DNA of 64,000 nt from an uncultured Candidatus Binatia bacterium (GTDB taxonomy: Bacteria > Desulfobacterota > Binatia > UBA9968 > JAJDTQ01): positions 3,040,001-3,104,000 of the forward strand of contig OZ251459.1 of assembly GCA_965242525.1 (NCBI GenBank). Reading direction: 5' to 3'. The translations under genes were made by a program, and so were the position numbers. The notes below the pieces were generated by a model. It was not told the origin of the DNA, ran no database searches, and was given only the letters and a program-made list of their open reading frames with translations. Positions 2,118-12,923 of the stretch are shown here, in pieces (within the stretch, counting starts at the first letter, position 1; every line of letters starts with the position of its first letter).

Positions 2118-3341
2118 TCAACCCTGGACGGACGCCGCAGCCCTGCGCCTGACGTAGGCCATGAGGCTGGGGATGCCCGCGGCGATGGACCCGTCCGCAT
2201 CGCCTTCGGCGACGTATCCCAACAGTCGAAGGTTCTCCAGCGCGTCGTCGGCGCTCATTGGTGCCGAGTCCGAAGCCAGTCCCTCGGTCAAGCGGTCGAT
2301 GGCTGCGTCCCTGGCGATGGACCGGGCGCCGTCGGAACAGGCGCCGGCCAGGGCAGCCGCGGCCTGGGGGATCCGTAGTTCGACGATCTCTCGCCACCGC
2401 TCTGCATAGTAGCGGTTGCGAAGCTGCCGGACCGCGGGCCGCGCCCGTTGGACGTGCGCCAGGGTCAACCGCGTCTCGTGGTCACCCAAGGTCCGCAGCG
2501 CGTGTCTGCCCCACATCTGCAGGAAGTAGGGATAGCAGCCGGCGTCGTCCACCATGTGGTCCAACGCATCCCGGTCCACCTGCACGCCGCCGGTGTGGAG
2601 CGGCTTGCGGATGGCGTCTCTGGCAGCGGGTCGATTCAGCAACCCGACCGGCATGTCGCCTTCGTCCAGCCTGCTCCAGAAGCTGGAGTCCATGCGACCC
2701 AAGTGCGGCGCCAGGAGGGGCGTCCCCGCCAAGACGAGCATGAACGGCGCCTCGTCCCGAACCGCCTGGGATGCGTTCAACAGCGCCGTCCCTACTTCCG
2801 GGTCGAGGGTGTGCGCCTCATCCACCAGCAGCATCGAGGACTTGTCCCGGCAGGATCGGACCAGCGCTTCGACCCATTCCGCCTCGTCCATGCCATCATA
2901 AGTGTCGGTGGTGACGCGCTTCCCGCCCATGCGGGTCGCTCCGAGTCCCAAGCCGCCCCCGGTTTCCACCGCCCGGGTGCTCCCGGTCACGACGCTCGTG
3001 CCCAACGTTGCCCGAAAGAGCTTCGGAAGCGTCTTCAAGGCAAAGGCCGGCAGCAGGACGACGCGGATGTTCCTCGCCCCCCGCACGGCGGGCTTCGCTC
3101 CCTCCCGTTTGGCCCAGTTGAGCAGCGCCGTCTTCCCTACGCCGCGGGGACCCTGGACGGCGGCGTCATGGGCGGGGGCCTTGCCCCGGCGCAGCTCGCC
3201 CATCATCCGGTCCAGGACTCCCTGCTCATGCTCCCGCCCGGCCAGGAAGAAGGGCATGCCCCCGGCGCCGGGCCGAAACAGGTCGGTTCGGTCCACCGTC
3301 CGTGGGGTTCGTCTGCCGGGTTCGCGGGTCATCGTGTCCAT
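2118..3341 (-). CDS. P-loop AAA/STAND-like ATP-binding protein (AAA_16-like)
   Basis: 407 aa ORF; FLAGRE, Walker A GPRGVGKT, Walker B LLVDEAH, GCYPYFLQ motif. Confidence 0.8.
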   Translation of the reverse strand: MDTMTREPGRRTPRTVDRTDLFRPGAGGMPFFLAGREHEQGVLDRMMGELRRGKAPAHDAAVQGPRGVGKTALLNWAKREGAKPAVRGARNIRVVLLPAFALKTLPKLFRATLGTSVVTGSTRAVETGGGLGLGATRMGGKRVTTDTYDGMDEAEWVEALVRSCRDKSSMLLVDEAHTLDPEVGTALLNASQAVRDEAPFMLVLAGTPLLAPHLGRMDSSFWSRLDEGDMPVGLLNRPAARDAIRKPLHTGGVQVDRDALDHMVDDAGCYPYFLQMWGRHALRTLGDHETRLTLAHVQRARPAVRQLRNRYYAERWREIVELRIPQAAAALAGACSDGARSIARDAAIDRLTEGLASDSAPMSADDALENLRLLGYVAEGDADGSIAAGIPSLMAYVRRRAAASVQG

Positions 3342-3546
3342 GGCGCGGGTCTCGATGCCGAGCCTCGTTCCTCAACGTTTATCTCCGATGCACGAGGAAA
3401 GCCACCCAACGCCCGGCAAAGCCGGGACAGGAGCATCCGGTCTCCACGAACTTCTTTCCGAGCCCCCCTGAGCCGCCTTGACCTTCTTCGTGCCCGATGG
3501 CCGTATTGACACGGCGCGAAACCGTTAGCGGTCTCGAACGAGATGT

Positions 3547-3575
3547 TTGACTTTCGGACGCCTCGGTGCTAAGGT
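3547..3575 (+). promoter_or_regulatory. Putative sigma70 promoter for the XRE-TIR-Nmad2 operon
   Basis: TTGACT-17 bp-TAAGGT with TG extended -10, about 90 bp upstream of the XRE gene. Confidence 0.4.
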
Positions 3576-3665
3576 GTTTCACTATCTAACCGAGGGTACA
3601 GAATCCCTCAGATGATGGGCTTTCTCAACTATCGGAACACAACCGACGAGCATACAGGACCGCAC

Positions 3666-4019
3666 ATGATGACCGACGAGGAGACCGTCCGCAAAGCTCT
3701 CAGCACACGGCTCAAGGAGGCGAGGGAGTACCGGGGGTTCTCTCAAGAGGAAGTGGCCCGTTATCTCCGGGTGCCTCGAACGGCAATTTCCCTAATGGAG
3801 AGCGGAGCGCGGCGCGTGAGCGCTCTGGAGCTCAGCCGCCTCGCCAAGCTCTATCAGACCAGCATGGAAAGCCTCACGGGACAGGAACCGGAAGAAGCGG
3901 AACCGGAGTCTATCCGTCTGGTAGCGCGCGCTGCCGCCAAGCTATCGCCGAAAGACCGCGATGAGGTCCTGCGTTTCGCACAGTTCTTGCGTACGAGGGT
4001 GTCGGATGAACCGGCATAA
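3666..4019 (+). CDS. XRE-family helix-turn-helix transcriptional regulator
   Basis: RLKEAREYRGFSQEEVARYLRVPRTAISLMESGARRVSALELSRLAKLY is an HTH_3 pattern; start taken at ATG 3666. Confidence 0.9.
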   Translation: MMTDEETVRKALSTRLKEAREYRGFSQEEVARYLRVPRTAISLMESGARRVSALELSRLAKLYQTSMESLTGQEPEEAEPESIRLVARAAAKLSPKDRDEVLRFAQFLRTRVSDEPA

Positions 4020-4033
4020 ATTGTGAGGATACG

Positions 4034-4519
4034 ATGAACCTGTCATCATTGTTCGAACGATTTCGCCTGAAGAACGTGCACCTGGGGCCGCGGTGGGCCA
4101 ACGTTGAATTCGAGTTCAAGGACGAAGACCGGAGCGCCGCATGGGAATTGTACGTCGAGATGCTGACTCGGATCGTCACGCAACCACTACCGGCGAGTGC
4201 GGGGGATGAACGAACTGCCCTGGAAAGCGTCCATTCGCTGTTTCCGACCACCCGTGAAATTCTGCGCCGACACGGAAGCGGCGCCGTGCAGTTCAGCAAG
4301 GTGGCGATTCCCATCCTGAACCAGGTGGTGCGCCCCTTTACCGCGAAGTGGCACAGAGAATCCCTGTCGGGCGCTTTCGACGACGCGAAAAGGCGCAAGG
4401 AGTTTCGGGGAGAGATGGAACATCTGCGGACGAACCTGCGTCACTACAACCGCATGCTGGCGGAGATCGCCGACGTGGAAGACTTGACCGACCTGGAGCA
4501 CTTGGACGAAGGAAAATGA
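4034..4519 (+). CDS. Hypothetical helical protein, in operon with TIR gene
   Basis: 161 aa ORF with RBS (gagga); AWELYVEMLTRIVTQPL...LNQVVRPFTAKWH; stop 4 bp before the TIR gene. Confidence 0.75.
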   Translation: MNLSSLFERFRLKNVHLGPRWANVEFEFKDEDRSAAWELYVEMLTRIVTQPLPASAGDERTALESVHSLFPTTREILRRHGSGAVQFSKVAIPILNQVVRPFTAKWHRESLSGAFDDAKRRKEFRGEMEHLRTNLRHYNRMLAEIADVEDLTDLEHLDEGK

Positions 4520-4523
4520 ACCG

Positions 4524-5000
4524 ATGGCGGAAGAAATCCGGAACGTATTCATCAGCCACCGGCACGAGGACGACGCCGGCCTGGCGGAACTCAAGCGGCT
4601 GGTCGGGCAGCATGGCTTGACTTGCCGTGACTACTCCATAACCGCGGACAATCCGAACAATGCCCACAATGGGCAATACATAAAGTCCGAGATCCTCGCT
4701 CCGCGCATACGCCAAGCCGGCTGTCTGGTGGTGTACGTATCGAAAAGGACGAAACAGAGCGAGTGGGTGGAATGGGAGATCGACTACGCCCAGAAACAAG
4801 GCAAGCGGATCGTGGGCGTCTGGGCGCGCGGAGACCTGGATTGCGACCTGCCGGCCGCCCTGGATCGTCACGCCGACGCCATGGTCGGCTGGAGCGGCGA
4901 GAACATCATCGACGCCATCAACGGCGGGTCCGACACATGGTACAACCCGGACGGGTCCATGTACGGTTACCGCGCCATTCCACGAGTTGTCTGCCAATGA
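4524..5000 (+). CDS. TIR domain protein (DUF1863 / ThsB-like)
   Basis: RNVFISHRHED, LVVYVSKRTKQSEWVEWEIDYA (catalytic Glu retained), KRIVGVW. Confidence 0.85.
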   Translation: MAEEIRNVFISHRHEDDAGLAELKRLVGQHGLTCRDYSITADNPNNAHNGQYIKSEILAPRIRQAGCLVVYVSKRTKQSEWVEWEIDYAQKQGKRIVGVWARGDLDCDLPAALDRHADAMVGWSGENIIDAINGGSDTWYNPDGSMYGYRAIPRVVCQ

Positions 5001-5010
5001 GGATAACCCG

Positions 5011-5775
5011 ATGCCGAAACTCTATTCATATGTCGTGGCAAGGGATTACGGGTTCGCTCCGAACCCCTTCTGCGGTTTCTGCACGCTGGCGACATGCAAA
5101 CCGGAGATACGCCGGAAAGCCGCTGTCGGCGATTGGATCATGGGGACCGGATCGAAACGGACGGAGCGAGAGTCGCACGTGGTTTACGCCATGTGCGTGA
5201 GTGAAGTGATGACGTTCAACGAATACTGGCAGGATACCCGTTTCCGAAACAAGCACCCTGACCTGCACGCCAGCATTCGCAAGGCGTTCGGCGACAACAT
5301 CTACCACCGCAACGACGCCACCGGCAGGTGGCGACAGGCCGACTCTCATCACAGTTGCGAAGACGGGACCCCGAATCGCCAGAACGTCGATCACGATACC
5401 CGCGTGGACCGGGTTCTTGTCAGTGACGATTTCATCTACTGGGGTGGTCATGGTCCGAAGATTCCTGCGTCTTTCAGAAAAGATGTCTGTAAGAGCGGAT
5501 CTGGCCACAAATGCAATTTCCCGGCCAAGATCGTGGACGAATGCATCGCGTGGTTGCGTGGTCTTGACGGAAGAGGCTACCGCGGCGATCCGCTGGAGTG
5601 GGACAGGAAGAGCATGGGGCTGCCGTGGCACAAGCGACGAAGGATGCCGCCTTTCCAGCCACGCTCCGCTGTCGCGGCCCGGGCGGCGATTGTCGGCTTG
5701 AAGGCTTTTCAACGGACACACCGCCTGCGCGGGTTGTCGGTTCGGCAGATGGTGGAAGAGGGACGACGGTATTGA
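5011..5775 (+). CDS. Nmad2 (nucleotide modification associated domain 2) protein with C-terminal antitoxin-like extension
   Basis: MPKLYSYVVARDYGFAPNPFCGFCTLATCKPEIRRKA..GDWIMG, GDNIYH, VLVSDDFIYWG; the domain appears to end at GDPLEW and is followed by about 57 extra residues. Confidence 0.8.
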   Translation: MPKLYSYVVARDYGFAPNPFCGFCTLATCKPEIRRKAAVGDWIMGTGSKRTERESHVVYAMCVSEVMTFNEYWQDTRFRNKHPDLHASIRKAFGDNIYHRNDATGRWRQADSHHSCEDGTPNRQNVDHDTRVDRVLVSDDFIYWGGHGPKIPASFRKDVCKSGSGHKCNFPAKIVDECIAWLRGLDGRGYRGDPLEWDRKSMGLPWHKRRRMPPFQPRSAVAARAAIVGLKAFQRTHRLRGLSVRQMVEEGRRY

Positions 5776-6191
5776 CGGCGTTCGTTCTCGATTGCTCGGT
5801 CACCATGGCCTGGATGTTTCGCGACGAAGCGACCGATGCCACCGATCGGCTGCGGGACATGCTGAACGATGATCGTGCCCTGGTTCCCGCCCTCTGGCCC
5901 ACAGAAACCGCCAACGCGCTTCTCGTTGCGACCCGGCGGGGACGTATCGCCTTGGACGAACTGCCGCGACTTCGCATGCAACTCAATGCGCTGCCGATCG
6001 ACATCGACCCGATCTCAACCGCCCATACCTGGGGGCCGGTGCTCGATCTCGCACACGCGCACCGGCTCACCGTCTATGATGCGACGTATCTCGAACTTGC
6101 CATGCGGAGACGGCTTCCTCTGGCCACCCTGGATCGTGCCCTCCACAACGCCGCGCGGACGGAAGGGTGCGAGATGCCGGGGTCCGCGTAA
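5772..6191 (+). CDS. vapC: VapC-like PIN domain toxin
   Basis: TTG start overlaps the upstream TGA (TTGA); FVLDCSVTMAW, PALWPTETANAL, LTVYDATYLELA, LATLDRAL. Confidence 0.85.
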   Translation: MTAFVLDCSVTMAWMFRDEATDATDRLRDMLNDDRALVPALWPTETANALLVATRRGRIALDELPRLRMQLNALPIDIDPISTAHTWGPVLDLAHAHRLTVYDATYLELAMRRRLPLATLDRALHNAARTEGCEMPGSA

Positions 6192-6205
6192 GACAGAGTG
6201 GGAAC

Positions 6206-7285
6206 ATGGACAACGTGTCGTGGTTTGCGCAGTACTGCGAGAACGCCGAACGCACGGACCAGCTCGTCGGTCACCGGAGGCACGTCGAACTGCTGGCGGC
6301 GGGTCTTGTCGGTGAAACCGGCAGCATTCTCGCGGAGTTGAAGAAGAAGGACAGGGAGAAGACGGCCTATCCTTTCGACCGGGAACGTCTCGAAGAAGAG
6401 ATTGGCGACGTTTTGTGGTACCTCGCTCGTCTGGTTGGAGTCCTGGCGCCATCCGAAGTAACGAAGCTGGACGACTCGGCTGCCCGTGCGGAGCAGCAGA
6501 ACGGCGATGACCTCGCGAATGCAATCGCCCTCGGCAGTGCCGTCGGCGCCATGCTCGACACGTTGCGGGAAGACTCCGGCAACGATGCCTCGCAGCGGCT
6601 CGGAGCGGTTTGGCGAGCCCTTGGTCAAGTCGCTGCCGGTTTGAAGATCGAGCTTCGCGATGCGGCTTGCAGGAACCGTCAGAAGACACGAAGCCGATGG
6701 CCAAGCGAGCGAAAGCCCGTAACGCTGTTCGACGACCGATTTCCCGAGGAGGAGCAGATTCCGCACAAACTGAACGTCGAGTTTCGGGAGATCGAGCATG
6801 GCGACAAGCCCGTCGTCATCCTGCGTTGCAACGGCATCAACGTTGGAGATCCCCTGACCGACAACATCGGGGCGGCCGATGGCTACCGATTCCACGACGT
6901 TTTCCATTTCGCGCATGCCGTGTACCTCGGATGGTCGCCGGTCTCGCGCGGCCTCCTGAAATGCAAGCGGAAAAGCAGCCCAGCCATCGACGAGAACGAG
7001 GACGGAGCACGCGCGGGGATCATCGAGGAGGCGGTGTCGGCGATCGTCTTCAGCCAAGCGAAGGAAACACGCTTCTACAAAGGCATCGATCACGTCGATT
7101 ACGATCTGCTCAAGACCATCAAGGGGTTCGTGAAGGGCTTCGAGGTTGACCGTGCGCCGTTGTGGCAGTGGGAAGAAGCCATTCTCAACGGCTACCGCGT
7201 ATTCCGGGAGCTTCAGGATCACGGAGGCGGGAAATTGACCCTGGACTTGCTCAATAGGGATCTCCGCTACGAGGCGCCGTCGTGA
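6206..7285 (+). CDS. MazG-like nucleoside triphosphate pyrophosphohydrolase with MazG_C domain
   Basis: GLVGETGSILAELKK...EEEIGDVLWYL (MazG) plus GDPLTDN...DGYRFHDVFHFAHA..LGWSPV..KRKS..DENEDGARA..IEEAVS (MazG_C). Confidence 0.85.
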   Translation: MDNVSWFAQYCENAERTDQLVGHRRHVELLAAGLVGETGSILAELKKKDREKTAYPFDRERLEEEIGDVLWYLARLVGVLAPSEVTKLDDSAARAEQQNGDDLANAIALGSAVGAMLDTLREDSGNDASQRLGAVWRALGQVAAGLKIELRDAACRNRQKTRSRWPSERKPVTLFDDRFPEEEQIPHKLNVEFREIEHGDKPVVILRCNGINVGDPLTDNIGAADGYRFHDVFHFAHAVYLGWSPVSRGLLKCKRKSSPAIDENEDGARAGIIEEAVSAIVFSQAKETRFYKGIDHVDYDLLKTIKGFVKGFEVDRAPLWQWEEAILNGYRVFRELQDHGGGKLTLDLLNRDLRYEAPS

Positions 7286-8456
7286 AAAGCGGGAGCTCCG
7301 GTTGGAGCGGTTGCGGGCTTCCTGCACGGGCACTGCTGTTTTCGGCAATCCACTTTTCGATCCGCTCGTTCAATTCCCACTTCGGCGGGAAGAACGGTTT
7401 GGGCACCGGCCCTGCCGCCGCGAATTTCTGCTTGATGCGTCCGCGCCCGGCACGTCCCTTGACCTCGGGATGAGTGGCCCGGGTGTACTTCGAGATCTCG
7501 CACAACAGGTTCTGGACGTCGATGGGCCGCAGCGATCGACCCCATAGACCGTCAAAACGCAGGTCGTTACGGCGGAACTCTTCTTCCTGGAGATCGGACA
7601 GCCACAGGATCGTATCTTCCGGTGAATAGTCCCCGAGTGATTCGAAGCATTTCGACAACCCGTCCAGCGCGCCCGGTCCGGCCACCACGAAACTCCATTC
7701 GGAGTGGGACGTCAGCGTCGTGTAATTGAGATCGATTGCATACTGGAAGGCGAGAAACGGCCCCAAGGTCGGATACGACAGGAGGAGGGCGTATGCGTCC
7801 TTCAGGGATCGGGAGCGTCTGAGCTTCGCCGGAAGCCGGTCGTCGAGCATGCGGCGCAGCAGTTGGAGATGCATTCGATGCTTCGGCACGCCGGAAATTC
7901 CTCCAGACGGCATGATGTAGGCCGCCGAGTAGATCGCTGCACCAAGCCCGCGGCGTCTGGCGAGCAATTCGTCGCATGCGAGGTAATCGAACCGGTCCGC
8001 CGCGGGACACCCCATATCGCGCACGATGCTTTCCCATGTGTCGATCTTGTTGAAGATCTTGAACAGCATGGTCCGGAGAAACAGCGTGTCGTCATTCGCG
8101 TCGTGGTCCGAATACGCCATGTGGATCAAGTACTGGCTCACTCGGTCCGCGGCGCGGAAGACGTTCGTGAATCGATAGTTCGACAGCACCGGATCGCTGG
8201 TCCACGGGCCCGGCTGCCCGGAAACGCGCCGCAGGTAAACGCGATGACGTTCGGCAGCGAAACGCCAGAGGGTCGAATAGAGGATGGACGGCTTGGGAAG
8301 AGCGCGTTTCGCGAAGGACGCCGTTGTTGACCTTCCAGCGGTTTCATCGGCCGGTTGCGTCGAGGAACTCTGCGGCTCAGCCTTCGGCGACCCGGCGCCG
8401 CCGACCGGGACCTCGGAGCCGATGGCGGGCGGGGCATCCATCGCGGCGTCACGCAT
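7251..8456 (-). CDS. aGPT-Pplase1 / 5-hmdU DNA kinase helical-domain family protein
   Basis: WRFAAERHRVY..R..G.PGPWTSDPVLSNYRFTNVFRAADRVSQYLI, LFKIFNKIDTW, IYSAAYIM, GPFLAFQYAIDLNY, VAGPGALDG, DVQNLLCEISKY. ATG 8456 overlaps the drmMI stop. Confidence 0.8.
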   Translation of the reverse strand: MRDAAMDAPPAIGSEVPVGGAGSPKAEPQSSSTQPADETAGRSTTASFAKRALPKPSILYSTLWRFAAERHRVYLRRVSGQPGPWTSDPVLSNYRFTNVFRAADRVSQYLIHMAYSDHDANDDTLFLRTMLFKIFNKIDTWESIVRDMGCPAADRFDYLACDELLARRRGLGAAIYSAAYIMPSGGISGVPKHRMHLQLLRRMLDDRLPAKLRRSRSLKDAYALLLSYPTLGPFLAFQYAIDLNYTTLTSHSEWSFVVAGPGALDGLSKCFESLGDYSPEDTILWLSDLQEEEFRRNDLRFDGLWGRSLRPIDVQNLLCEISKYTRATHPEVKGRAGRGRIKQKFAAAGPVPKPFFPPKWELNERIEKWIAENSSARAGSPQPLQPELPLFTTAPRSGDPY

Positions 8457-11400
8457 CAGTTCTGTCCCATGGGAAAAGCGGCTCCGCCACCCATGCCGCG
8501 CCACCGCGCGTCGCCTCCGTCCGCCCCGCCCCCCGGCCGCGTTTCTCTCCCGCCCTTGTCACCGTCCTTCCGGCGCGGGCTTCCTCCGCGGCGCGGGCGG
8601 CGTTCAGTTCCAGGAGGCGGGCGAGGACTTCGTCGCGGGTTTCGTCGGGCCAGCGGTAGCGGTAGGGCTTCTTTCGGTTGCCCTGTCCTTCTTCGTCGAT
8701 GTCGTAGTCGAGGAGGAAGTCGCAGTGGGTGGCGATGTCCTGCCAGCCGTAGGCGTCGAGGACGGCGCGGTCCATGTGGGCGTGGAAGCCGCGGAGCTTG
8801 GCGATGTCGGGATCGTCCTCGTTGGGGTCGTGGAAACGGTTGTAGGTCTTGGTGAGCCCCTCGTCGTTCCTGACCATGAGGGCGGCGCGGAAGTCGTAGT
8901 ACGCCTCACCGGCGGCTTCGAGGTCGGGGCGGGTCTCCCACTGTTCGGGGAAGGGGAAGGTCTCGAAGCAGTCGGACGGCGAGTAGTTGATGTCGTCCTT
9001 CATTGTAGAGCTGAAGAACCTGGACCATATTCCATGAACATTCGATTGCAGGATACTAAATGCTGAGTAACGTCCGAGGGGAAATACAACCAACTTGTGT
9101 GAGAAAACCAAGCCCGTCGGAAGGAATACAAAGTAACTCGTGTTGCTCACAATTGGACAGACCAGAACTCGATTCAAGCGAACGACGCCCGAGTAAAGAC
9201 CGGGGCGTTTCTCAGCATAGTGCCACCAGCGTTCACGAAGCGCCTTTCGATTCTGGCCGTCGCGTTTCGGCTTCACCCGCTCCTCCACGATCGCCACCAA
9301 CTCCGGCCAGTCCTCTGCCACCGGATCCGGGTAGTCGTGCGGCACGACCGGCTGCCGCCGCAACTCCCGCCTCCGTTCTCCGTCCGTATCTGCCCATGAC
9401 GCCCCAACGCCCTCCCGTTCCCGGCGGAGCGGGTAGTCGTGAAAGTTGATGACATAGCGGTGGTAGGCATGCGTCGGGCTCGTGTTCACTTCCTCGCCTC
9501 CGATATAAGGGAAGATCGCCTCGCGGTTTCGCGGGTTCACTTCGATGAGCCGCTGCATCTCGGCCAGTGGCGAGGCGATCCCATCCGTGTCAGTGTCGTC
9601 GAAGGTGAAGCCTATACCGAGGACGAAACTTCCGATGAAGCCCTTTCCGGCATTCGCTGCCAGCCGCGCCGGGTCGCCGTGGCCGCCCCTGTGGAACAGA
9701 AACGCAGTAATCGTCTCGGCCGCCCCATCGTCCAAACGCTTCACCCCCGGAAACCGCCCCTTGAAGACGTGCAGCACGCTCACCACCACGGCCGCCAAGC
9801 CGGGCCACTTGACCCGGCGGCGCGCCCGGTAGATCTCGCCGCCGTGCTCGCAGATCCATCGCAACCCGGTCGAGCGCGTGTCGCCCTGGGCGATGGTGTT
9901 GGTGGCGATGAGGCCGAAGGCGCCGTCTTTGCGGACCAGGTCGAACGCTCGGCGGAAGAAATGGGCTACCAGGTCGGAGTTGCCGTGGCTTTCCGGGTGG
10001 ACCTGTTTGAGCCAGTCCGGGTAGCCGGGAACGTTGGCCGCCACGACCGTGTTCTTGCCCGCGAACGGCGGGTTCCCCACCATCGCGTCGAACCCCGGGT
10101 TCTCCCGCTCGAAGACCTCCGGGAACTCGACCTCCCAGTGGAACGGAGCGAGGGGCGGCTCGCCGTCCCGCAACTCTTCGAGCCAGCTTCGGTAGCGGTG
10201 CGCCTCGCCGCGCTCGACCGCATCGGCGACCTGCGTGCGCAGGGCCTCGCGCTCCTTCGGTTTCGCCTTTTCGAAGAACGCGGCTAGGACCAGGGCGCCG
10301 AAGACGCCCGCTTCGTCCAGTTCGTCCCGGGCGTCCTGCCACAACAGGCGCCGCTCCCGGTCGGAGACCTCTTCGCCGGCGTCCCGGATGCGTTCGCGGA
10401 GCGCCGCAATTTTCGCCAGGCGCTCCCGTATCCGCATGACCTCGAACCCGGCCTGGAACTGCGGAGCGTCCCCTTTCCAGTGGAACGCCTCGATCTGCGT
10501 GCGGGTGAGGCCCACCAGCGAGTCGCCGTGCCGCAGGGCGTGGTCCAGGAAGGTCAGGGGGTGGTCCCTGGCCAGAGTGATGAGCCAGAGCGACAGTTTG
10601 GCGAGGTCCACGGCCACGGGGTTGCGATCCACTCCGTAGAGGCAGCGTTGGGCGACCAGGCGGCGGGCGAACACCACTTCGTTCTCGTCGGGCGGAATCT
10701 CGGGTACGACGTCGTGGGCGCGCCATGAATCCACCAGGAGGTCGGCGAGTTGGCGGCAGGCTTCGACCAGGAAGGCGCCGGAGCCCATCGCGGGGTCGCA
10801 CACCTTGAGGTCGAGTATCCGTTCGGGCCGGGGCGCCTTGCCCCCTTCCGCGCGCAAGCGCTCCAGGATCGGTTCCAGGGTGCGGCGCACGATGGGTTCG
10901 GTCAACTCGCGGGGCGTGTAGTGCGAGCCGGAACTCCGCCGTTCCTTGCTCGGTTGCAGGATCATGGCGTGCGGAGGCGCCAAGTCCGGGGTCGCGTCCC
11001 CGTCGATGACGGGACCGAGGGCGGCGTGCAGGGCCTCCACGGTGTCGGCTTCGTGGACGGCCCGCTTCACCCGGTCGGTGAGCTTGCGGTCGGTGCGGTC
11101 CTGGACCCATTTGGCGCGTCCGGCCGGTGCTTCTCGCAGCAACGCCTCCACGTCCACGGTGGCGGGCGCGCCCCCTTTCTTCGCCGCCTTGATGGCCGCG
11201 GAGCGGCCGGACGCGGTCTCCAGCCGGAACCCCATCATGGTCTCATAGACGGAGCCGATGTGCTCCACGTCCAGGGCGCGGTAGGAGATGCGCTCGCCGT
11301 CCAGGACCATGAGCTTCTCCAGCACCCGGTAGATGGCGCCATCGGGCACCAGGGGCGGTTCGATCCCTTCGTGGACCTGCCGGGCGCCGCCCTGGCCTCG

Positions 11401-12644
11401 GCCCTCCAGGAAACGGTACCGGTCGGGGTCGAACAGGGCGCCGCGGCGCGGCGGCAGCGACATGCCGCCCGAGCGGGCGCCGTCGTGGACCATGCGGAAC
11501 AGGACCAGGAGTTGCGCGTACGCGCCGTAGCGCTGGTCCATGGTGTCCGGGTGCAGGGCCCCGCGTCTTCCCGCAGCCGCTGGTGCAGGCCGGCCAGCGA
11601 GTAGGCGCCCAGGAAGGTCTCGTCCTGGGGCAGCACGTCCCGTTCCTCCGCGTACAGCAGGAAGACCAGACGCAGCACGAGGGTGAGCAGGCCGCGGTAA
11701 ACCTCGTCTCGGTCCCTGTCCAGGGGCTCGCGGAGGAGTGCGCCCTTGGACGCGCCGTGGGCCGCCTGGAAACCGCGCAGCAACTCGTAGAGCGCGTGCA
11801 GCACCTGTTCGGCCAGGCGCTCGCTCACCTCGTTCTGGAACTTGCGGCTGCTTTCCAGCAACGCGGCCAGGCGCCGCGGGCGCGGCTGGGTCAACAGCCG
11901 CGTCTGGCCCAGCAGCAGACGCATGGCGGTGCAGATGGGCCGACCCGCGGTCTGCACCATCTCCGACACCCGGAAGTCGAGCCAGCCGGAACTTTCGCCG
12001 CGCGGCGCGGAGATCAGCCGGAGCGAGACGCCGTTGAAGAGCAGGCCCGCGGGCGCGCCGGTGTGCCGCAACAGGCGCTCCATGCGCCCGTGGGGCGAGA
12101 CTTCGAGGCCGCCCGTGCGAACCGCGCGGTCGAAGTCCTCGCCCGGCTCGCAGACCCGAACGAGGAGCTGCCAGAGGGAAGGCATATCGGAAGGCGCATC
12201 GGATACGGGGGTCGGATCTGGCCGGTACGCCGGCGCGCCCTCCCGCACTTCGAACCCGGCTCCTGCCGCGGGGACGTCCTGCAACGGCTCCGCGCGGACC
12301 GCGAAATCGGGGCGCTGGACCTCGCCGGAATCCCCCAGCGCCGCTTCGAGTTCCGGCGGGACCGGCGCCCCGTCCGTACCGGCGTAACCCCTGGGAGAGA
12401 AGCTCCAGCCGAGCACGGACCCGGCAAAGGCGCGGAAGTCCGGCAACCACGGCCGAGGCTCGTCCCCGGAGCGAAAGCTGCGCTCCTCCGTGCACTCCCG
12501 CAACAACCGCTGCCCCTCGGCGTCCCGCCGGTCCAGTATCGCCCCGGCCCTGACCAGCGCCGGCGCCGAGACCACCAGCCCCGTGGGCCGGACGAAGCCC
12601 AGCCATTCGAGATGGGCGGCAATGTGCGGGTCGGGATTGGCCAC
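8449..12644 (-). pseudogene. drmMI: DISARM N6-adenine DNA methyltransferase DrmMI with an apparent frameshift at ~11559-11562
   Basis: N-terminus (MANPDPHIAAHLEWLGFVRPTGLVVS...LREDAG) lies in ORF 11235..12644. C-terminus (ALHPDTMDQRYGA..., GSHYTP, DPAMGSGAFL, GNPPF, RWPDETRDEVLARLLELN) lies in ORF 8449..12891. The frames switch at a G4 run. Could be a sequencing error. Confidence 0.75.
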
Positions 12645-12660
12645 GAACCATCAGCCGGCG

Positions 12661-12762
12661 GTTGACATGAGGCAAGAAAAGGACGACAAAAGGAACATGC
12701 TTGCGCAAGCAACCCAATAGGCACTTGTTGACATGCGGCAAGAAAAGAACGACAAAAGGAAC
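12661..12762. repeat. Two 36-bp direct repeats (34/36 identical) separated by a 30-bp spacer containing a 14-bp palindrome
   Basis: GTTGACATGAGGCAAGAAAAGGACGACAAAAGGAAC (12661-12696) and GTTGACATGCGGCAAGAAAAGAACGACAAAAGGAAC (12727-12762); TGCTTGCGCAAGCA at 12698-12711. Confidence 0.9.
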
Positions 12763-12923
12763 CGAAGGGGTTTCATAAAGCAACTGGGGATGGATTTCAA
12801 ACGGAGAGACGGCAAGCAGAGGAAGGCTAGGCACGCTTATTGCTTCCCAAGTATGGAGAGAAGTGTTCCTCAACGATCCTTTCAGGGACACTCTTGCAGA
12901 GTCTAAGCAACAAAGGAAACGGT

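Follow-up and report, generated by a model that had tools for sequence, protein, structure and literature searches.

In the genome of an uncultured Candidatus Binatia bacterium, the gene for a protein of the Nmad2 family runs on into a tail resembling the C-terminus of an antitoxin, and its stop codon overlaps the start of a gene encoding a VapC-type toxin with a PIN domain. We analysed this arrangement in a stretch of 64,000 nucleotides (nt) from contig OZ251459.1, called the window in the following, to which all positions given without a locus name refer (Table 1). A first-pass annotation, made from the letters alone, had proposed that a toxin-antitoxin (TA) pair inserted here and lost its DNA-binding half, so that the neutralising peptide became fused to Nmad2.

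The Nmad2 tail and the overlapping VapC gene

The Nmad2 domain itself is complete: Pfam PF18753 matches residues 1-200 of the protein with positions 1-199 of the 200-position profile (E 4e-75). The frame does extend by about 57 residues past GYRGDPLEW, as the first-pass annotation had read it, and the domain is followed by a tail of about 54-57 residues with the C-terminal end ...AARAAIVGLKAFQRTHRLRGLSVRQMVEEGRRY. The overlap of the Nmad2 TGA with an in-frame TTG (5772-5774) as VapC start codon was described correctly, too. The same applies to the absence of a separate antitoxin open reading frame (ORF): none is found between Nmad2 and VapC in the ORF list, and nothing resembling an antitoxin, including its N-terminal half, is encoded in the two remaining frames of 5520-5780.

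The acidic residues of the PIN domain (D7, E45, D103 and D121) are present in VapC and invariant across 30 aligned sequences, so that the toxin looks active by prediction. A TGATG stop/start junction was detected at the matching place in two related loci (L016 and L017) and in a free vapBC pair (L044). For the linker at the beginning of the tail, no homology to Nmad2 or to the antitoxin was detectable in the tail alignment and in the DNA alignment with the free antitoxin gene. Its residues L7, P8 and W9 are invariant or nearly so in the fused clade, and its Met codon (5614-5616) stands just behind a Shine-Dalgarno-like AGGAAG. In the AlphaFold2 (AF2) model of the fused protein (mean pLDDT 71), linker residues 196-223 are disordered (pLDDT below 50) and the tail forms two low-confidence helices (residues 220-236 and 244-253), a picture compatible with a region that folds on binding.

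In sequence, the tail is a homologue of the C-terminal part by which Phd/YefM-type VapB antitoxins bind the toxin; this bears out the resemblance to Phd/VapB C-termini noticed before. A profile of 12 tails of the fused clade was searched against 5.8 billion (5.8e9) proteins, considering only those of 31-100 amino acids (aa), and found 289 small proteins at E<=10. The best 120 of these 289 (E 1.8e-16 to 3.8e-11) are 52-84% identical to the tail, mostly 58-70%, and cover 54-98% of it; the best matches, down to E 1.8e-16, show 60-70% identity over 72-84% of the tail. PF02604 (Phd/YefM antitoxin) is present in 94 of the 120 listed matches, nearly all of them 80 aa long, and the remaining 26 are shorter forms (43-90 aa) without a precomputed Pfam domain. 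A separate search with the tail alone, which had been suggested as a check, thus found the antitoxin similarity.

In the protein alignment, PPFQPRSAVAARAAIVGLKAFQRTHRLRGLSVRQMVEEGRRY of the tail pairs with LIPFRxRDTDRIRAAIDGLKEFQRTHSLGGLSVRQMIEEGRRY, roughly residues 38-80 of the free antitoxin, and every conserved C-terminal residue of the free antitoxin is kept (identity pattern F..PR....RAAI.GLK.FQ.TH.L.GLSVR.M.EEGRR). DNA homology to the free antitoxin gene of L044 begins at GCACAAGCG, i.e. at tail residue 10 or about antitoxin residue 29. The antitoxin-homologous region therefore comprises about residues 29-80 of the 80-aa antitoxin, minus two codons missing through a 6-nt deletion in the DNA alignment. 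With a profile built from 28 VapB antitoxins of greater distance, the tail scored 25.4 bits. Searched alone against Pfam and NCBIfam it had no match, and PF02604 matches neither the tail nor the fused protein; the free relative in L044 matches it at E 4.6e-12. In its N-terminal part, the free antitoxin is weakly similar to M. tuberculosis VapB5 (PDB 3dbo, E 0.12) and VapB46 (E 0.22).

A phmmer search of the tail against 1.84e9 representatives, whose 50% clustering hides the fused Nmad2 clade itself, gave 27 matches, namely 20 small proteins of 46-123 aa and seven long ones matching in multiple stretches. The two long ones inspected (P0361 and P0364) are both repeat proteins, and this search revealed no further protein family with the tail fused to it. 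A tblastn search of the tail against plasmids had no match. Furthermore, no second copy of the tail was found in the genome (completeness 98.96%): among eight matches at E<=10 only the tail itself was significant, and the next best had E 0.05. With no other antitoxin of this type in the genome, the Nmad2 tail would be the sole candidate neutraliser of its own family if VapC is active.

Many database entries of the free antitoxin (P0125, P0127, P0129, P0163 and others) are 54 aa long, start with M[IV]T[RK]H and lack the first 26 residues or so. Either their start was mis-called, or they are true N-terminally truncated antitoxins.

The toxin belongs to a subfamily also known from canonical type II VapBC pairs. 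In L044, the gene of a free PF02604 antitoxin (80 aa, 63% identity with the tail) overlaps that of a 138-aa PIN toxin 62.5% identical to the window VapC, and VapCs behind free antitoxins related to the tail are 62-72% identical to it. We found 4195 VapC homologues at E<=0.001; among the best 120, the first 22 are 77-92% identical, followed by a drop to about 71%. Three close VapC clusters (78-87% identity) and three fused Nmad2 clusters have longest contigs of equal size (209330, 4971 and 4996), and eight VapC clusters (65-69% identity) match free 80-aa antitoxin clusters in the same way. This points to a co-location of toxin and antitoxin clusters, without proving it. Shared with the canonical pairs are, apart from the toxin subfamily, a C-terminal region of about 45 residues ending with EEGRR[YH] and the overlapping stop/start. 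In contrast to them, the N-terminal Phd/YefM domain of the antitoxin, which serves DNA binding, dimerisation and autoregulation, is missing, and a 200-aa Nmad2 stands in its place. Of the features of type II VapBC systems, the window thus has the PIN acidic residues, the coupled upstream antitoxin sequence and the VapB-homologous C-terminus; it lacks a small antitoxin autoregulating the operon by an N-terminal DNA-binding and dimerisation domain.

Table 1. Position of the Nmad2-VapC region and of the neighbouring genes in the window.
Feature	Position	Strand	Remarks
STAND/AAA NTPase	2118-3341	-	flanks operon
HTH_3 regulator	3612-4019	+	first gene of tight row
Conserved 161-aa protein	4034-4519	+	first gene of conserved cassette; homologues upstream of TIR-Nmad2 in many loci
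ThsB-like TIR protein	4524-5000	+	PF08937 E 3.3e-23; PADLOC ThsB PDLC00418 E 5.7e-62
Nmad2 ORF	5011-5775	+	254 aa; ATG start at 5011, another in-frame TTG upstream at 4987
Nmad2 domain	5011-5601	+	aa 1-197; last residues GYRGDPLEW, stop point of most homologues
Linker DRKSMGLPW	5602-5628	+	between Nmad2 domain and antitoxin-homologous region
VapB (Phd/YefM-type) C-terminal toxin-binding region	5629-5772	+	about 48 aa, HKRRRMPPFQ...EEGRRY; assigned by homology
TGA stop of Nmad2-tail	5773-5775	+	overlaps VapC start (aTTGA)
VapC toxin gene (PIN domain)	5772-6191	+	139 aa from TTG; PF01850 E 1.4e-7
MazG + MazG_C protein	6167-7285	+	PF18722 E 1.9e-76; PF03819
HMUDK_hel (5-hmdU DNA kinase helical domain) protein	7251-8504	-	PF18723 E 1.1e-91; convergent to operon; kept in L016 and L017
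DISARM DrmMI-like methyltransferase ORF	8449-12891	-	1480 aa from first start; PADLOC PDLC02643, 1041 bits, residues 447-1454

Conservation and origin of the fusion

A homologue search with the Nmad2 protein gave 5809 matches in all. Among the best 120, 15 (the window's own included) are 253-255 aa long, carry the tail and align over 100% of the query; the remaining 105 have 190-244 aa and cover 69-83%. Those of the shorter homologues that were aligned stop a few residues from GDPL[ED]W or bear other, shorter extensions. The usual Nmad2 stop, which the first-pass annotation had wanted located by such an alignment, hence lies shortly after GDPL[ED]W, and the tail is extra. Besides the window's own, 14 further 90%-identity clusters contain the same fused protein of 253-255 aa (69-81% identity).

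In the fetched loci, 74 Nmad2 genes have a complete 3' end; as the loci were selected for resembling the two fused forms, one of which is described below, the counts are not frequencies. Fewer than 12 extra residues are present in 64 of them, antitoxin-like tails in three (L016, L017 and L018), 32-aa basic tails in two and extensions of 13-21 residues in five. The window's Nmad2 shares with the other members of PF18753 in TIR-Nmad2-MazG_C cassettes the complete domain and, with relatives from several phyla, the same neighbours, but unlike the fused form most of the genes examined (the 64 of 74) end within 12 residues of the domain. Seemingly long matches of L021 and L024 were rejected as tblastn over-extension, the Nmad2 ORFs there having 199 aa. 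The 32-residue extensions, found in the metagenome loci L076 and L079, are basic, of low complexity and not antitoxin-like; the stop codon overlaps the MazG start by 4 nt there.

Two further genomes, both recorded as Vicinamibacterales metagenome-assembled genomes (MAGs), contain the fusion in L016 (83% identity) and L017 (74%). Both loci exhibit the same order of a gene for the conserved protein of about 160 aa (unk160), TIR, Nmad2-tail, VapC and MazG/MazG_C, followed on the opposite strand by HMUDK. The tail-less loci L032-L035, L037 and L039 have MazG directly 3' of Nmad2. Since Nmad2 and MazG are adjacent in tail-less loci and free antitoxin/VapC pairs exist, the simplest history would be that a vapBC module inserted between Nmad2 and MazG and that the 3' part of vapB was subsequently joined to the Nmad2 frame by a deletion. 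The proposal of an inserted TA pair that lost its DNA-binding half is thus supported, as the simplest history, by the tail-less loci with MazG next to Nmad2 and by the free pairs of the same subfamilies.

An assembly or sequencing artefact, i.e. a missed stop or a frameshift after PLEW, is hardly conceivable. A contig from an independent run of another study (X4, record 7) covers 5254-5772 with 0 differences, and a variant of about 97% identity (X5, record 9) covers the whole stretch with no indel in 5011-5775. In the tail, this variant differs by P16Q, V31D and one synonymous change; D in place of V31 is the residue of most homologues. Contigs from runs of the second study hence cross the junction without indels, and the stop right after PLEW, which the first-pass annotation had said raw reads might reveal, did not appear. 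The same fused frame is moreover present in the 14 further clusters and two genomes.

To estimate selection, dN/dS was calculated according to Nei-Gojobori (NG86) between the window, L016 and L017 (dS 0.5-1.2). The values are 0.19-0.29 for the tail and 0.14-0.29 for VapC (dS 0.5-0.9 in both cases), 0.10-0.17 for the Nmad2 domain and 0.10-0.15 for TIR. Of the 57 columns of the tail alignment, 19 are invariant, including LPW of the linker and the terminal EGRRY. These data bear on the alternative that the toxin is dead or silent and that the tail is what is left, in decay, of a disrupted TA module. Defence islands often contain remnants of TA modules, and the strain of the window has lost the canonical ATG of VapC. 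Yet dN/dS is low for VapC and the tail, the four catalytic acidic residues are invariant, full-length tails are kept in 15 clusters, the ATG is retained in the related strain (X5) and both other genomes, and the same architecture evolved twice (see below). We therefore regard a neutral relic as very unlikely. The idea of an insertion scar only, considered by the first-pass annotation as well, is contradicted by the conservation, the purifying selection and the second independent fusion.

A second fusion in another Nmad2 subclade

A second Nmad2 subclade (P0021, P0025, P0027 and P0028; 233-240 aa) has another tail at its C-terminus, ...RLGFMAGQIEVPDDFDSMGGPEIEKMFGGDA, which is termed tail2 here to distinguish it from the tail of the window (tail1). 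In L018 (6001-7106), a locus from a Latescibacterota MAG, a 240-aa Nmad2 (PF18753 at residues 1-198) ends with ...RLGFMVGQIKVPDDFDSMGGQEIEKMFGGDA, and its stop codon lies in a 4-nt overlap with a 128-aa PIN gene (PF01850, E 2.3e-10). The sequences of this PIN protein and of the window VapC are unrelated (BLASTP E 1.0) and belong to different subfamilies. The L018 protein is instead 62% identical (E 5e-47) to the product of a Mesorhizobium plasmid gene annotated as VapC family toxin, upstream of which lies a gene for an 81-aa 'prevent-host-death family antitoxin' aligning with the L018 tail (E 7e-16). In addition, L103 encodes a free 83-aa antitoxin that shares 82% identity with the P0021 tail across 34 residues. 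The tail-less locus L019 contains a gene similar to type I specificity subunits directly after Nmad2, with neither tail2 nor a PIN gene of the L018 type. For DNA of the P0021 clade, a metagenome scan gave 65% identity at best; L018 came from the genome scan.

A maximum-likelihood tree was calculated for the Nmad2 domain with 58 rows, leaving out P0043 and P0051, for which a search for the start motif failed. One clade (100/97) unites the four tail2 proteins and another (100/98) 14 of the 15 tail1 proteins; both are separated by well-supported branches, with tail-less proteins between them. Judged by this tree and the unrelated partners, the fusion of Nmad2 with an antitoxin tail is an architecture that arose twice, from unrelated VapB/VapC families.

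A possible third case of a tail-only antitoxin lies elsewhere in the same genome (G000:C1:1938588-1941853; L012:2086-5354, minus strand). A 959-aa protein resembling type III restriction Res subunits (ResIII + RE_endonuc) ends there with ...GERDRRGTVMTSEEVRQARDEGRAR. Its gene overlaps (ATGA) that of a VapC paralogue 38% identical to the window's, and a separate antitoxin ORF is again absent. Neither the tail nor a VapC is present in the five closest Res homologues. To cognate antitoxin C-termini (..ESIRELRDEGRDR) the Res tail shows weak similarity: a profile of the four closest gave 1.4 bits, a score reached by 17 of 1000 shuffles, and one of 28 cognate-type antitoxins gave -0.5 bits, no better than shuffles.

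The Nmad2-VapC pair and its operon

Because the arrangement is conserved and arose twice, the Nmad2-tail and VapC probably form a working, if unusual, TA pair and not a scar. We consider it likely that vapBC inserted in the TIR-Nmad2-MazG operon, that the antitoxin lost its N-terminal part and that Nmad2 now acts as antitoxin for the coupled VapC. In this course of events, a Phd/YefM-type vapBC module would have landed between Nmad2 and MazG in a defence island. The first 28 or so codons of the antitoxin, i.e. its DNA-binding and dimerisation part, would have been lost. The remaining toxin-binding region of about 48 residues continues the Nmad2 frame and forms the C-terminal tail of the protein.

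According to one study, VapB C-termini bind to a groove of VapC and put positively charged residues into the active site (PMC5389673). For this reason the Nmad2 tail may bind VapC likewise, wrapping around it with its terminal arginines (EEGRRY) entering and blocking the acidic PIN active site. As the DNA-binding half is gone, the pair would be unable to autoregulate, and its expression and stoichiometry would be slaved to the operon. A scan of 3300-8700 detected 0 promoter-like sites and no plus-strand terminator inside the operon, which is a weak test in a non-model organism. Together with the loss of the DNA-binding half, this indicates that VapC is probably made by translational coupling to Nmad2 at the overlapping stop/start. 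Survival of the cell might then need a continuing supply of the Nmad2-tail, which would result in addiction to the operon and stabilise it; if the host's genes were no longer expressed or Nmad2 was destroyed, growth arrest mediated by the RNase could follow.

Several observations weigh against Nmad2 as the antitoxin. The PIN gene, called intact by the first-pass annotation, is so as a 139-aa ORF with PF01850, but only if the TTG start is used. The canonical ATG of the homologues, present at this position in L016, L017, L044 and the run X5 (5776 C>T), reads ACG here (5775-5777). TTG 5772, one codon upstream, is the sole VapC start retaining the catalytic D7. The ACG may be an attenuating mutation, and VapC may be weakly expressed in this strain from its TTG. 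In the AF2 model, the tail has a pLDDT of just 42-62. In the tree, the tail1 protein P0015 is placed weakly (89/66) outside the main clade, beside nine tail-less proteins, owing either to later tail loss or to misplacement. Finally, the benefit for the cell, be it addiction or abortive infection, is one that we infer from the arrangement.

A further point is the Met at tail position 5, found in 12 of the 15 clusters (V, T or L in the others), which follows AGGAAG and could start a free 53-aa peptide; if this is also made, the fused form may not be the sole neutraliser. Carried further, this peptide from the internal ATG at 5614, in the same frame, would be the real antitoxin, with the read-through from Nmad2 incidental after loss of a stop four codons upstream. 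AGGAAG precedes the ATG by 5-10 nt in the window and L016, and AGGAAA does so in L017. The 54-aa truncated forms of the free antitoxin in the databases would also fit, and with just four codons between PLEW and the Met an open frame would be cheap to keep. On the other hand, the frame is open in all 15 clusters and three genomes, and the invariant LPW of the linker suggests that the protein sequence is under constraint. In tail2, no Met is found upstream of the antitoxin-homologous region, and the only one inside this region is L in P0028; with no usable upstream Met, the fused form is the sole possible carrier there. Moreover, in PMC10440598, the C-terminal element of Phd neutralised its toxin only on a stabilising domain, e.g. 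the unrelated carrier SUMO, and failed in isolation. The free peptide as real antitoxin thus seems improbable to us, and the carrier dependence fits, by analogy, a tail working while attached to Nmad2.

Comparable arrangements are known. PanA (Panacea-domain) and other multidomain antitoxins have a short, probably disordered neutralising element on a larger non-DNA-binding domain, as here. Unlike these, the carrier is Nmad2, which belongs to a TIR/MazG operon, has conserved partners of its own there and is not a dedicated antitoxin domain, and the toxin is VapC instead of Doc or toxSAS (PMC10440598). Single-gene fused TAs (CapRel; YefM-YoeB and RelE-YiaG fusions) are TA pairs rearranged by gene fusion, too, and PMC11980606 links such fusions to phage defence. 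These join toxin to antitoxin, whereas in the window the toxin is separate and translationally coupled, and the antitoxin fragment sits on an unrelated third protein. Full-text searches, of incomplete coverage with most subscription journals outside, turned up toxin-antitoxin fusions and PanA, but no antitoxin tail described on Nmad2 or another defence protein and nothing on a TIR-Nmad2-MazG cassette.

Antitoxins are usually small autoregulating repressors. Here, a neutralising peptide would have been transplanted onto a component of another system, twice and from unrelated TA families, which indicates that antitoxin modularity can reach unrelated enzymes or sensor proteins. The fusion ties the VapC RNase physically and genetically to an uncharacterised TIR-Nmad2-MazG cassette, offers a way into Nmad2 function and makes a simple system to ask if TA modules of defence islands guard the defence genes next to them or serve them as addiction devices. 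For annotation it means that a PIN gene need not be an orphan toxin even if it has no small ORF upstream.

In a VIA-align search with the AF2 model of Nmad2 (5011-5610, pLDDT 71), YTH domains occupied nine of the 11 top rows, followed by ASCH, McrB-N, VcaM4I and THYN1. The Z-scores of 8.2-5.2 over 113-140 residues lie below the level the tool regards as safe, and the best Foldseek match had E 0.04. The models are suggestive of a PUA-like fold as in readers of modified bases, which, if true, would mean that the uncharacterised Nmad2 family has a fold for reading nucleic acids or nucleotides. As a tentative and rather unlikely extension of this fold resemblance, and in line with the sensor-antitoxin fusion considered by the first-pass annotation, Nmad2 could read modified nucleotides or DNA and act as a sensor-antitoxin: a ligand, phage attack or depletion would withdraw or degrade the tail, and VapC would fire as RNase effector arm of the TIR-Nmad2-MazG system. 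If so, two unrelated VapB/VapC pairs on one Nmad2 C-terminus would speak for selection for this wiring instead of chance, and defence proteins would have a general route to capture 'tail-only' antitoxins.

The region is a defence island, with the DrmMI-like methyltransferase and the STAND/AAA NTPase flanking the operon. The conserved 161-aa protein, ThsB-like TIR, Nmad2 and MazG/MazG_C recur as a cassette (window 4034-8504; L016-L039), often with an HMUDK_hel gene near, in MAGs of Dehalococcoidia, Latescibacterota, Chloroflexota, Bryobacterales, Omnitrophota, Sphingomonas and others. Of the 29 Nmad2 loci that stem from genomes, 23 have the TIR gene directly upstream of Nmad2. Within the cassette, the TIR protein alone has a PADLOC match, and the 161-aa protein matches nothing in Pfam, NCBIfam or PADLOC. 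None of the nine neighbouring proteins scanned matched a ThsA model at E<=0.001, no dedicated ThsA search having been made. The TIR-Nmad2-MazG cassette is a candidate for an undescribed defence or DNA-modification system. In L016, a 458-aa ORF (3587-4963), taken from its sequence as a transposase, lies between the HTH regulator and the 161-aa gene.

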